From an uncultured Solirubrobacterales bacterium (lineage in GTDB: Bacteria > Actinomycetota > Thermoleophilia > Solirubrobacterales > JBBDJG01): a stretch of DNA of 64,000 nucleotides. The stretch spans positions 1,014,119 to 1,078,118 of the forward strand of contig OY970293.1 of NCBI GenBank assembly GCA_963716195.1. The letters run 5' to 3'. Below the pieces are notes generated by a model. The model saw nothing but the letters and a program-made list of their open reading frames with translations, had not been told where the DNA came from and did not search any database. Of this stretch, positions 31,436-34,815 are shown one piece after another (position 1 is the first letter of the stretch; each line of letters starts with the position of its first letter). The position numbers and the translations under genes are program-made.

Positions 31436-33475
31436 TTTCACCGTCAAGATATGAAGGGCATACGGTGGATGCCTTGGCACCAGGAGCCGAAGAAGGACGT
31501 GGACGGCTGCGATAAGCCACGGTGAGGCGCTGAACAGCCTTTGACCCGTGGATGTCCGAATGGGGAAACCCGGCGCTGGTAATGCGGCGTCATCCCGTGC
31601 TGAATACATAGGCACGGGAAGGCAAGCGGGGGAAGTGACACATCTCAGTACCCCGAGGAAAGGAAATCAACCGAGACTCCCTGAGTAGTGGCGAGCGAAA
31701 AGGGAATAGCCCAAACCCGGCAGGTGTAAGCGGGCACGCGTTGCCTGCTGGGGGTTGTAGGGCGTCTGTTCCGGGCTGTGCCTGGCCCGGCGGGAGTTAC
31801 AAAGTCATGCGCTAGCCGAAGCACGTGGAACCGTGCACCACAGAGGGCAATCGTCCCGTAGGCGAAAGTGTGTGACCTCCCGCAGATGTCCCTGAGTAGG
31901 ACCGTGCCCGTGAAACGCGGTCTGAACCTGGGGGGACCACCCTCCAAGGCTAAGTACTCCCTGGTGACCGATAGCGGACTAGTACCGTGAGGGAAAGGTG
32001 AAAAGTACCCCGGAAGGGGAGTGAAATAGTACCTGAAACCGTGTGCCTACAAGCGGTCGGAGCACTTCGGTGTGACGGCGTGCTTTTTGCAGAACGAGCC
32101 GGCGAGTTACTCGTCTGTGGCGAGGTTAAGCGATGAGCGGAGCCGTAGCGAAAGCGAGTCCGAACAGGGCGAATCAGTCGCAGGCGGTAGACCCGAAACC
32201 GAGCGAGCTACCCATGGGCAGGTTGAAGCGGGGGTAAGACCCCGTGGAGGACCGAACCGACCTAGGTTAAAAACTGGGCGGATGACCTGTGGGTCGGAGT
32301 GAAAGGCTAATCAAGCTCGGAGATATCTGGTTCTCTCCGAAATATATTTAGGTATAGCCTCCGGTTATTGCGTAATGGCCGTAGAGCACTGCTTGGACTA
32401 GGGGCCCTACCAGGTTACCGAATTCAGGCAAACTCCGAAGACCATTATGTGAATCCGGGGAGTCAGTCCGTGGGGGATAAGCTTCACGGTCGAGAGGGGA
32501 ACAACCCAGACCACCAGCTAAGGTCCCTAAGTGCTAGCTAAGTGGGAAACGATGTCTGAATGCTCAGACAACCAGGAGGTTGGCTTAGAAGCAGCCACCC
32601 TTTAAAGAGTGCGTAACAGCTCACTGGTCAAGTGTTCGGGCGCGGACAATGTAACGGGGCTCAAGCTAGCCACCGAAGCTGTGGGTTCGGCGATCCTTCG
32701 GGATCGTCGAGCGGTAGGAGAGCGTTCTGTTGCCAGCGAAGCGGCGGCGTAAGCCAGCCGTGGAGGCAGCAGAAGTGAGAATGCCGGCATAAGTAACGAA
32801 AGAGGGGTGAGAATCCTCTCCGCCGATTGTCCAAGGTTTCCTGAGTAAAGCTCGTCTGCTCAGGGTCAGTCGGGACCTAAGGCGAGGCCGAAAGGCGTAG
32901 CCGATGGCCAACGGGTTGATATTCCCGTACCACGTCACATCCGTTTGACCGATTGGGGTGACGAGGAAGGGTAGGGGAACCCAGGCGATGGTCGTCCTGG
33001 GGTAAGCGCGTAGCTAGCGGCCGTAGGAAAATCCGCGGTCGTGTTGATGCGAGGCGCGATGCCAGCTGGCCGAAAGGCCGGCGAGTCCCCGAACCCATGC
33101 CTCCGAGAAAAACCTCTAGGGAGGATGTGCGTGCCCGTACCAAAACCGACACAGGTGGACAGGCAGAGAATGCCAAGGCGATCGAGATAACCTTCGTTAA
33201 GGAACTCGGCAAATTAGCCCCGTAACTTCGGGAGAAGGGGCGCCCCGGTAGGGTGAAGCCACTTGCTGGCGGAGCCCGAGGGGGCCGCAGTGAAAAGGCC
33301 CAAGCGACTGTTTACCAAAAACACAGGCCTCTGCTAAGTCGTAAGACGACGTATAGGGGCTGACGCCTGCCCGGTGCCGGAAGGTTACGCGGAGGTGTTA
33401 GCCGCCCTTCGGGGTGGCGAAGCACCGAAGCTAAGCCCCGGTAAACGGCGGCCGTAACTATAACGGTCCTAAGGT

Positions 33476-34245
33476 GATGGAAATCGTTGCCCCTTGTCAC
33501 AGTAATGTGACAAGTGCATCTGGCTATATGCTGGAAAACCCGAGTATCCGTCCGGTACTCGCCCTAAGGTGATTCCTCTAACCAAGGAGGGTTGCCGGTG
33601 GGCAGTGACAATCCGGACGGTGCGGAAAATCAGCAGGAAAGGCTGATCAAGCTAGGTTGGGTTATTGGTTTTGTAGACGGAGAAGGATGCTTCTCAATCG
33701 GCTTCGTCCGGCAACCCTGTCGGACCCGCCGGAAAGGCTACAGAGCCGGCTATCAGGTGTTCCATCGATTCGTGGTCACGCAAGGTGCTCGTAGTAAGGC
33801 CTGCCTCGAGGACATAAGAAGCTTCTTCGGGGTCGGCAATCTTTACGAGAACAGGCGACACGATAGTCATCGAGAGCATCTGATCCAGTACCACGTGAGC
33901 CGTCGAAAGGACCTCCTGGGAGTGATCATTCCGTTTTTCCGGGAGCACCCACTTCGGAGCTCAAAGCAAAGGGACTTCGAGACCTTTGCGCGGTGCTTGG
34001 AGATCGTTGAAAGCGGGCGGCATTTGAGCTCTGAAGGGCTCATAGAGATCGCTGTCCTCGCAGAGACGATGAACCGTCAAAAGCCCAGAGGTGACTTGAT
34101 CAGAATCCTCAGAGGCCATACGCCAGGCACCCTGGACACTGGGTGAAGAGATGGTCCCTTCTGCATGGCGACATGCAGGGATGGCGCAGTGCGGCTAGAG
34201 GATGTGCCGTCCGTCTAACAGAAGTGACACGTTAGGCAAGACTAA
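33476..34245 (+). mobile_element. Homing-endonuclease-bearing intervening sequence (group I-like intron) at 23S position equivalent to E. coli U1931|A1932
   Basis: It separates ...TAACTATAACGGTCCTAAGGT from AGCGAAATTCCTTGTCGGGTAAGTTCCGACC..., which are contiguous in E. coli 23S. It contains a LAGLIDADG ORF and two GNRA-capped hairpins (33493-33514 loop GTAA; 34161-34178 loop GCGA). It is visibly more AT-rich than its flanks. The last nucleotide is A, not G. Confidence 0.8.
33592..34146 (+). CDS. LAGLIDADG-family homing endonuclease, single-motif (homodimer-type, I-CreI/I-CpaI-like)
   Basis: Motif LGWVIGFVDGEGCFSI near the N-terminus and family-typical downstream pattern (LIQYHVSRRKDLLGVIIPFFREHPLRSSKQRDFETFARCLEIVESGRHLSSEGLIEIAVLAETMN). 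SD AAGGAGG lies at 33584-33590. GTG 33598 (7-nt spacing) is a better start than the TTG 33592 used by the track. Confidence 0.85.
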   Translation: MPVGSDNPDGAENQQERLIKLGWVIGFVDGEGCFSIGFVRQPCRTRRKGYRAGYQVFHRFVVTQGARSKACLEDIRSFFGVGNLYENRRHDSHREHLIQYHVSRRKDLLGVIIPFFREHPLRSSKQRDFETFARCLEIVESGRHLSSEGLIEIAVLAETMNRQKPRGDLIRILRGHTPGTLDTG

Positions 34246-34815
34246 AGCGAAATTCCTTGTCGGGTAAGTTCCGACCTGCACGAATGGCGTAACGACTTGG
34301 GCGCTGTCTCAACGAGGGGCTCGGTGAAATTGTAGTCTCGGTGAAGATGCCGAGTACGCGCGGCAAGACGGAAAGACCCCGTGAACCTTTACTACAGCCT
34401 GATATTGGAGTCTGGGGCATCTCGCTCAGGATAGGTGGGAGGCTTTGAAGCAGTGGCTTCGGCTGCTGTGGAGCCAACCTTGAGATACCACCCTTGATGT
34501 TCTGGGCTTCTAACACCTCACCGTGAAGCCGGGAGGTGAACAGTGTCAGGTGGGTAGTTTGACTGGGGCGGTCGCCTCCTAAAATGTAACGGAGGCGCCC
34601 AAAGGTTCCCTCAGCACGGTTGGAAATCGTGCGTAGAGCGTAAAGGTATAAGGGAGCTTGACTGCGAGACTGACAGGTCGAGCAGGTACGAAAGTAGGGC
34701 TTAGTGATCCGGCGGTTGCAAGTGGAAGCGCCGTCGCTCAACGGATAAAAGGTACTCCGGGGATAACAGGCTTATCGGGCCCAAGAGTCCACATCGACGG
34801 CCCGGTTTGGCACCT

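Follow-up and report, generated by a model that had tools for sequence, protein, structure and literature searches.

The window analysed here, a 64-kb stretch of DNA from an uncultured Solirubrobacterales bacterium, contains a 23S rRNA gene with two introns. The first was placed by global alignment to E. coli rrlH, which showed an insertion of 770 nt on the + strand, exactly between the positions of E. coli U1931 and A1932 (Table 1). U33475 is the last base of the 5' exon, and A34245 is the last of the insertion. The exon flanks are CCUAAGGU and AGCGAAAUUCC, and therefore the splice boundaries cannot be moved; the initial annotation was correct that the insertion terminates in A rather than omega-G. 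The second intron, at L2500, follows a U at position -1, ends in G and contains no ORF.

The L1931 insertion is indeed a mobile group I intron; it belongs to the L1931 rRNA lineage and has its own single-motif LAGLIDADG gene. It possesses a P1 with a U·G wobble, a P3-P8 core that includes the G-binding pair and bulged A of P7, and a P10; the terminal guanosine is absent, the last base being an A. That guanosine is regarded as almost always needed in the second step of splicing by group I introns. The Rfam model RF00028 matched the insertion with a score of 26 bits (E 2e-4), under its gathering score of 50 bits; that threshold discriminates poorly in this case, since the ORF-less L2500 intron of the same gene also reached only 29.9 bits. 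The match to the model is interrupted in the L1931 intron by the 443-nt ORF loop.

Table 1. Features of the L1931 intron and its exon junctions, in window coordinates.
Feature	Position	Strand	Details
Group I intron, 23S position L1931	33476..34245	+	rrlH alignment 1931/1932; Rfam RF00028 match; covariation-supported fold
P1	33473..33491	+	exon GGU + intron GAU (33473-78) with guide GUUGCC (33486-91); loop GGAAAUC
P10, guide half UCGUU	33484..33488	+	pairs with 3' exon AGCGA 34246-50; contiguous, in register with P1
P2 hairpin, 9 bp	33493..33514	+	97% of cells paired; many compensatory changes
P3, 5' strand	33519..33524	+	pairs with 34122-34127; compensatory CG/UA changes at two positions
P4, 5' strand UGCUGG	33529..33534	+	pairs with UCAGCA 33630-35; 100% paired in 96 sequences
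P5 arm	33540..33625	+	P5 33540-42/33623-25; P5a 33548-55/33613-20; P5b hairpin
P5b hairpin	33560..33604	+	P1-like strands CCUAAGGUGAU (33563-73) and GUUGCC (33591-96)
Single-motif LAGLIDADG homing endonuclease gene	33598..34146	+	Pfam PF00961 (LAGLIDADG_1), E 3.6e-18
P6, 5' strand	33641..33651	+	pairs with 34095-34108, 9/9 complementary; compensatory changes; closes 443-nt ORF loop
P7	34112..34157	+	34112, 34114-19/34151-57; encloses P3' (34122-27) and P8 (34128-45)
J7/9 nucleotide N (U)	34159	+	Watson-Crick partner of A34244 (one-pair P9.0)
P9, P9.1, P9.2	34161..34237	+	P9 34161-78, P9.1 34179-212, P9.2 34213-37; covariation and fold
Conserved AAG and 5-nt tail ACUAA	34238..34245	+	AAG 34238-40; z = A34244; omega = A34245

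The predicted helices P1 through P9.2 are backed by covariation in 96 relatives. An obvious internal guide had been reported as missing, although the GUUGCC strand of P1 pairs across the 5' splice site with GGU and GAU; this pairing had been dismissed because it leaves the splice-site U opposite a G, but a wobble of this kind, here U33475·G33489, is what typifies group I 5' splice sites. The wobble and the two G-C pairs of P1 were invariant in 96/96 relatives. P10 extended over at least five contiguous base pairs from exon position +1 in 83/96 relatives, and was retained even where a hairpin had been inserted in L1. Elsewhere in the 5' domain, compensatory changes were found among the 96 relatives in P2, P3, P5, P5a and P6, and the minimum free energy fold of the P5 arm was -43.6 kcal/mol (z = -3.9). 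In P7, where the G-binding pair is G34114-C34156 and the bulged A is A34113, all pairs including the G-binding G-C were invariant in 96/96 relatives. Across the 3' domain 92.8% of cells were paired, compared with 80.2% in shuffles and 34–46% when partners were slid; 24 pairs showed changes on both sides, including 5/5 in P8, 9/9 in P9.1 and 7/7 in P9.2. A pairing of P2 with the 3' strand of P9.2 (CCACC/GGUGG in some relatives) was considered and rejected, each of these elements forming its own covarying hairpin.

The longest ORF within the intron begins at TTG 33592, but GUG 33598, 7 nt past a Shine-Dalgarno sequence, is the likely start of the endonuclease. The translation had 4475 homologues, many of 182 aa, its relatives in PDB belong to the I-OnuI/I-PanMI family (E about 1e-33), and the LAGLIDADG motif was present with its acidic residue (LGWVIGFVDGEGCF). 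The product is predicted to be a single-motif, homodimeric-type LAGLIDADG homing endonuclease. The ORF leaves 215–221 nt of the intron outside it; the initial estimate of about 215 nt was accurate, while the view that this is tight for a ribozyme core was not, because core helices lie inside the ORF. It spans P5b', P5a', P5', P4', P6, P6', J6/7, P7 and P3' and runs into P8, overlapping about 106 nt of core helices, so that the pure ORF loop is 33652–34094 only and the ribozyme, at about 327 nt, is not cramped. Relatives without an ORF measured 264–328 nt. The endonuclease ORF begins within the P5b hairpin and continues through much of the ribozyme core, and its ribosome-binding site is hidden in RNA structure.

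Relatives were drawn from metagenomes by a fixed P7'-P9 pattern, and the sample therefore covers one sub-lineage of L1931 introns. Within it, the AAG near the 3' end was present in 115/118 relatives and the tail that follows was 5–6 nt long in 111/115. The UAAGR motif upstream of the tail was nearly invariant. In contrast to the near-universal expectation, the terminal base was not fixed: among 118 distinct 3' ends omega was A in 52, G in 38, U in 21 and C in 7. One relative in culture, Conexibacter sp. S30A1, has omega = U. Of 115 distinct relatives, only 37 had omega = G and 78 did not. Where omega was not G, the penultimate base (z) was a Watson-Crick match for the J7/9 nucleotide (N) in 75 of 78 cases, the N:z pairs being G:C (36), A:U (29), C:G (7) and U:A (3); where omega was G, such a match occurred in 1/37. 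This association was highly significant when relatives were treated as independent of phylogeny (Fisher p = 3.7e-25). Overall, N:z was Watson-Crick in 62/96 relatives against 26 expected, a value reached by 0/2000 shuffles. In a neighbour-joining tree built from the remainder of the intron, where the sequences are short, the omega class switched at least 18 times.

No other position behaved in this way. When all alignment columns were screened for association with omega class, only z and N stood out, and a search of J7/9, the 3' exon CUUG and the L9.1 loop for a partner of the whole variable tail or of UAAGR produced nothing consistent except N:z. Omega identity did not track the P7 variant (GGCC or GACC), nor was P10 longer in the non-G class (5.55 bp on average, against 5.26 bp in the G class; p = 0.35). 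The window intron, with a tail of ...ACUAA and N = U, has the pair U34159:A34244, and so does L038, its closest endonuclease relative; its nearest relatives end differently, L042 in ...CUCAG and L037 in ...GCUAG, and have A or C at N. To judge from these alignments, there are two interchangeable states in the family: either omega is G and the pair is absent, or omega is another base and the pair is present.

The initial annotation also described an exact 11-nt duplicate of the 5' splice junction, and this was confirmed: CCTAAGGTGAT occurs at 33468–78 and again at 33563–73, with no other copy in the 64-kb window. Allowing one mismatch at most, about 0.16 matches were expected, and two were reached in 1/100 shuffles. 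The downstream 11-mer is one strand of the P5b hairpin, which copies P1. In the loop of P5b, UCCUC pairs with the Shine-Dalgarno sequence AAGGAGG (33584–90), and the GUG start lies in the hairpin base; the fold (-22 kcal/mol) was equalled by 0/200 shuffles. Among the relatives, an exact P1 copy in P5b was found in this window alone. A less likely addition to the broader proposal given below is that this copy (33563–73/33591–96) serves the ribozyme as a decoy or as a further substrate, in which case cleavage after U33570 would free an endonuclease mRNA starting just upstream of its Shine-Dalgarno sequence.

An exact direct repeat flanking 95 nt might otherwise indicate that the segment between the 11-mers is a separate, optional element, making the insertion a nested (twin) intron or some other intervening sequence. 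This explanation, which the initial annotation had listed, carries next to no weight. The 95-nt segment holds the 3' strand of P1 (that is, the guide), P2 and the 5' strands of P3, P4, P5 and P5a; these are parts of the core, which every relative keeps, with covariation, even where the repeat is missing. Only one ribozyme core was identified by Rfam, where a twintron would have a second. An rRNA intervening sequence of the kind processed by RNase III was rejected because no inverted repeat joins the ends of the insertion, as it would need, and the insertion has a complete group I fold; any different class of intervening sequence was ruled out by the complete, covariation-supported P1-P9.2 fold.

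The remaining alternatives concern the 3' end. Without omega-G, splicing might be incomplete, so that the intron stays in the mature 23S rRNA, as has been reported for the L1931 intron of Simkania, or is excised without ligation to give a fragmented 23S. This would suit the terminal A seen here, the non-G bases in about two thirds of the family and a tail sequence that drifts freely, and the title of Everett 1999, as cited in PMC11270868, refers to an 'unspliced' group I intron at the same site. However, conservation with covariation is seen in the ribozyme fold, in the U·G wobble, in the G-binding pair and in an in-register P10 of 5–6 bp, also in ORF-less copies, which are free of protein constraint. 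The non-G class also has a compensatory pair exactly at the 3' junction, which implies that the active site continues to dock this junction, while fragmentation explains nothing extra, since any cleavage of the 3' site by the ribozyme meets the same omega problem. Position 1931, moreover, falls within a junction that is conserved universally and sits at the interface of the ribosomal subunits. A degenerate or unspliced intron is disfavoured, and incomplete splicing in either form was judged unlikely. More unlikely still is that G34240 of the UAAG is the real omega-G, with ligation after it and a tail of 5–6 nt kept in the mature rRNA. Such a role would account for the AAG in 115/118 relatives, for the purine that always follows it and for a tail of fixed length but free sequence. 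Yet the register of P10 fits A1932 and not the tail, whose second base, in most cases C or U, is unable to pair with the guide; the final two bases of the tail, where the covariation and the split into G and non-G are seen, would be left without a role; and no rRNA is known to carry a variable insertion of 5–6 nt between U1931 and A1932. Shifting both splice sites, with exon G1933 or G34240 as omega, was likewise rejected, as it clashes with the U·G wobble, the P10 register or the invariant exon. Finally, A34245 could be a sequencing or assembly error for G, being one G-to-A change away from the canonical state of L037 and L044, and the initial annotation had allowed that correcting an error might restore a G at the true 3' site. 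This can hardly be credited when the terminal base is other than G in 78/115 independent assemblies, the L2500 intron of this 23S gene is canonical, and the J7/9 base is U in both the window and the A-ending L038, while the omega-G neighbours have A or C. A34245 was judged genuine because L038 shares its state along with the matching change at U34159.

The preferred interpretation, considered probable, is a mobile L1931 group I intron with a standard 5' splice site, in which the 3' splice site is clamped by P10 and a single P9.0-type pair instead of being recognised through omega-G. The 5' site would be chosen in the standard manner, through the P1 formed by GGU and GAU with GUUGCC and its U33475·G33489 wobble, and the intact G-binding pair of P7 could take exogenous guanosine. 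On one side the 3' site may be held by the 5-bp P10 (UCGUU with AGCGA), in exact register with P1, and on the other by the single Watson-Crick pair A34244:U34159 in J7/9; A34245 would then occupy the position normally held by omega-G. The geometry of a single N:z pair relative to P7 is proposed by analogy. The intron anatomy, the covariation and the pattern across the family were observed directly; ligation of the exons with omega = A is inferred. Of the four possibilities raised initially, the omega-A intron is the one supported, and the nested arrangement and the different class of intervening sequence are excluded. Against the preferred interpretation, replacement of omega-G in model ribozymes severely impairs the second step. 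A broader proposal, that ribozymes across the family ligate exons accurately with any terminal base, a P9.0 pair and a strong P10 replacing omega-G docking, and that this was toggled at least 18 times, is advanced tentatively, as somewhat less than evenly likely. Both P9.0 and P10 are known to help define the 3' splice site (PMC6155759).

The family is very large in soil Thermoleophilia (Solirubrobacterales, Conexibacter), and it appears that a whole, abundant family in soil Actinomycetota has made omega-G dispensable. The literature searched cited one natural exception to omega-G only, an intron of Coxiella. The compensatory rule seen here is clear, repeatedly evolved and open to direct mutagenesis. 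If confirmed, it would represent a ribozyme that swaps base-specific substrate recognition for helical clamping; it would affect automated calling of intron boundaries, which assumes a terminal G, and would offer freedom in 3' splice-site design to engineered ribozymes for trans-splicing or RNA circularisation. With one to three introns in many Thermoleophilia 23S genes, the annotation of rRNA and surveys that rely on primers can be distorted.

The Coxiella burnetii intron Cbu.L1917 resembles the window intron in being a bacterial 23S group I intron without canonical omega-G (Raghavan et al. 2007, J Bacteriol 189:6572); the title of that paper, as cited in PMC11270868, describes its terminal nucleotide as other than omega-G. 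It is nevertheless spliced from precursor rRNA (PMC4990558) and has been assigned to subgroup IB2 (PMC11019260). It differs in its site (1917 rather than 1931) and in being a single, species-specific case, whereas about two thirds of more than 100 distinct introns lack the G here and have a compensating pair. Sister introns at L1917 in the same Solirubrobacterales 23S genes share a similar P7'-P9 motif and a 3' layout in which a hairpin is followed by UAACA and a short tail, but, unlike the L1931 family, end in G in 29/30 cases.

The L1931 introns of Simkania, Thermotoga, Synechococcus C1/C9 and chloroplasts, and the CPR intron with I-ShaI, occupy the same site and encode the same endonuclease family; one LAGLIDADG enzyme already characterised comes from a CPR insertion at this 23S site (PMC11270868). 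Cyanobacterial members have ORFs that reach into the ribozyme core from a peripheral loop (PMC1995217), while the ORF of the window intron differs from those of other L1931 introns in beginning in P5b and filling L6. With the organellar and cyanobacterial IB4-type L1931 lineage the intron shares insertion after U1931 and a single-motif LAGLIDADG ORF. According to PMC1995217, P2 is missing from the cyanobacterial introns at L1917 and L1931; judged by published description, the present family departs from that lineage in its covarying 9-bp P2. At a canonical 3' site, P10 joins the L1/guide region to the 3' exon and a P9.0-type contact joins the intron 3' end to J7/9 beside P7 (PMC6155759, PMC2532722). 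Canonical introns use omega-G, P9.0 and P10 together, whereas in this family omega-G and a Watson-Crick P9.0 are almost mutually exclusive.

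The 23S gene of the window was 4080 nt long and, in a global alignment against E. coli rrlH, contained two large insertions as well as several lineage-specific expansions; these are listed with the other features in the table. The L1931 insertion was flanked by invariant CCUAAGGU and AGCGAAAUUCC, and its boundaries are therefore immovable; A34245 was indeed its last base, as the initial annotation had read it. The L2500 insertion was a second group I intron, ORF-less and adjoining peptidyl-transferase nucleotides, which scored 29.9 bits against the Rfam RF00028 group I model, with U34815 as the canonical U at -1 and G35121 as its terminal base.

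Features of the rRNA operon and its intervening sequences (window positions)
Feature	Position	Details
16S rRNA gene	29652-31201	rRNA operon
23S rRNA gene	31442-35521	rRNA operon
5S rRNA gene	35623-35739	rRNA operon
23S expansion	31723-31807	47 + 27 nt near position 280 (vs E. coli), lineage-specific
23S expansion	33060-33078	19 nt near 1535 (vs E. coli), lineage-specific
23S expansion	33403-33412	10 nt near 1868 (vs E. coli), lineage-specific
L1931 insertion	33476-34245	770 nt, exactly U1931/A1932
LAGLIDADG_1 endonuclease ORF	33592/33598-34146	single-motif, Pfam E 3.6e-18
P1	33473-78 with 33486-91	GGU/GAU with GUUGCC; U33475·G33489 at 5' splice site
P10	33484-88 with 34246-50	guide UCGUU with first five exon bases AGCGA; register with P1 exact
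L2500 insertion	34816-35121	306 nt, after U2500

The L1931 insertion is genuinely a group I intron: its guide sequence is normal and its core roomy. It scored 26 bits (E = 2e-4) against the Rfam group I model, which was below the gathering score; the model is interrupted by a 443-nt ORF loop. Relatives were taken from 36 genome loci (nearly all of them from Solirubrobacterales MAGs, with Conexibacter sp. S30A1 and a small number of Patescibacteria besides), eight contigs carrying the closest endonucleases and 120 metagenome contigs with a match to the P7'-P9 motif; the fold was compared across 96 distinct full-length introns. A U·G wobble is the signature of the group I 5' splice site, and it was invariant in this set; GUUGCC, previously dismissed on account of this very pair, is the guide that had seemed to be missing. 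Compensatory changes were seen in P2, P3, P5, P5a and P6, double changes were abundant in P8, P9.1 and P9.2, and the G-binding G-C pair of P7 was invariant. The 3' domain had 92.8% of its cells paired; shuffles gave 80%, and slid partners 34-46%.

The core had been thought tight, at 215 nt. However, the ORF overlaps P5b', P5a', P5', P4', P6, P6', J6/7, P7, P3' and half of P8, and the ribozyme is therefore ~327 nt; ORFs extending into the core are known already for bacterial L1917 and L1931 introns (PMC1995217). ORF-less relatives of 264-328 nt were found, in which omega, the terminal intron base, was as variable (A5, G4, C2, U2) as in ORF-containing forms. Such mini-versions, in which a short loop caps P6, occurred at loci L053, L066, L071, L074, L076, L083, L088, L093, L110, L116 and L127. 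At two other loci, L041 (~338-380) and L044 (~141-185), the P1 loop had an additional ~20-nt hairpin (GUCACACUUGUGUGAC) and the P10-forming UUUCGUU was retained. The endonuclease had thousands of relatives in a homologue search, those with solved structures belonging to the I-OnuI/I-PanMI group. On metagenome contig L043, a second LAGLIDADG_1 gene (825-1595, 256 aa) lay directly downstream of the L1931 intron, which suggests that this 23S gene contains another intron a few tens of nt further on.

The 3' end of the L1931 family had a fixed layout, comprising the covarying P9.2 hairpin, a nearly invariant UAAG, a purine, and a tail whose sequence drifted freely while the distance from AAG to the junction was 5-6 nt in 111 of 115 introns. 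The UAAGR motif itself (34238-34241 in the window) was present in 115 of 118 relatives; a search for its pairing partner identified none, while it resembles the GGUAAG found in the loop of 23S helix 71, and exon CUUG (1942-45) could be its partner. The 118 distinct 3' ends comprised 52 with A as omega, 38 with G, 21 with U and 7 with C. Inspection of the alignment revealed pairing between a variable J7/9 base, N (GAUGGUC-C-C-N-U-CUGCAUGG), and z, which immediately precedes omega: N:z was Watson-Crick in 62 of 96 introns, where 26 were expected, a value reached by 0 of 2000 shuffles. Where omega was not G, the pair was present in 75 of 78 cases (G:C 36, A:U 29, C:G 7, U:A 3); where omega was G, it was present in 1 of 37, with z being A in 27 and N being A in 30. 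Fisher's test of this association gave p = 3.7e-25, shared ancestry being ignored, and a tree of the rest of the intron required at least 18 class switches. When all alignment columns were checked, none besides N and z followed omega class, and neither P7 variants nor P10 length distinguished the two classes.

At L1917, only 14 nt before the L1931 intron and just upstream of AACGGTCCTAAGGT, a sister group I intron was frequent in relatives (L008, L010, L018, L020, L025, L032, L035, L037, L039 and many metagenome loci) and absent from the window. Its 3' end was laid out like that of L1931 (hairpin, GUAACA, 4-5 nt, then G), and all but one of 30 distinct sequences (29) ended in G. Since nearly all L1917 introns and the L2500 intron end in G, the relaxed omega is specific to the L1931 family and not an artefact of extraction. 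In the window, N was U34159, z was A34244 and omega was A34245. The nearest relatives, L042 and L037, were in the G state (…CUCAG, …GCUAG; N = A or C), and L038 had the U:A pair and omega-A in common with the window. A34245 was rejected as a sequencing error or decay, because the window fits the N:z rule, the corresponding change lies 85 nt upstream, and L038 has the same state. The missing omega-G is genuine, and a local case of a family-wide, compensated relaxation.

The 11-mer CCTAAGGTGAT occurred exactly at 33468 and 33563, as first noted, and only there (~0.16 matches expected by chance). The suggestion of a nested element did not survive, because the 95 nt separating the copies include P2, the guide and the 5' strands of P3-P5a. 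The second copy makes up the 5' side of the P5b hairpin, a strand that starts YCCUA in all relatives; the exact copy was confined to the window, the best internal match elsewhere being 6-9 of 11. In the sub-lineage of the window, L001, L038 and L042/43, the intron gained 5 extra nt at its 5' end and the hairpin gained ~20 nt with a strong Shine-Dalgarno sequence; from its sequence, the L042 insertion looks like a local duplication including CAGUGAC from the ORF's own start. The opposite strand of P5b in the window was also GUUGCC (33591-96), with three wobble pairs identical to P1, and the hairpin is thus a full P1 look-alike. In its predicted fold (-22 kcal/mol), the Shine-Dalgarno sequence is paired to UCCUC and is buried together with the GUG start, so that translation of the endonuclease from the folded intron is probably restricted. 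The identity with P1 may reflect gene conversion or chance on a favourable background; a functional role, as decoy or processing site, is unlikely. The pyrimidine stretch following the 11-mer (UCCUCUAACC, 33574-33583) was complementary at 9 of 10 positions to the L9.1 loop (GGCUAGAGGA, 34193-34202), where AGGA is conserved across the family; the invariant UCCUC of J6/7 (34105-34110) would be an equally good partner for this AGGA. The L9.1 pairing may represent a tertiary contact in competition with Shine-Dalgarno/anti-Shine-Dalgarno pairing.

The L1931 family would have two ways of holding its 3' junction: omega-G docked in the P7 pocket, or a P9.0 base pair and a P10 of 5-7 bp flanking the junction, the latter arrangement leaving the identity of the leaving-group nucleoside free. 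The main rival explanation is that non-G introns fail at step two and are retained in the rRNA, or that the rRNA is fragmented, and a Simkania intron at the same L1931 site was reported to be unspliced. However, neither the conserved P10 nor the compensatory N:z pair makes sense unless the active site still receives the 3' junction. A second rival, in which the conserved G34240 would be the true omega and the rRNA would keep the tail, conflicts with the register of P10 and with the position of the N:z covariation. Accurate splicing of the window's omega-A intron appears likely from these sequence patterns.

No earlier description of a family-wide, compensated relaxation of omega-G was found. 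P9.0 and P10 are recognised helpers of omega-G in setting the 3' splice site (PMC6155759, PMC2532722), and one natural omega-less intron is on record, Coxiella Cbu.L1917, which is spliced (PMC11270868, PMC4990558).
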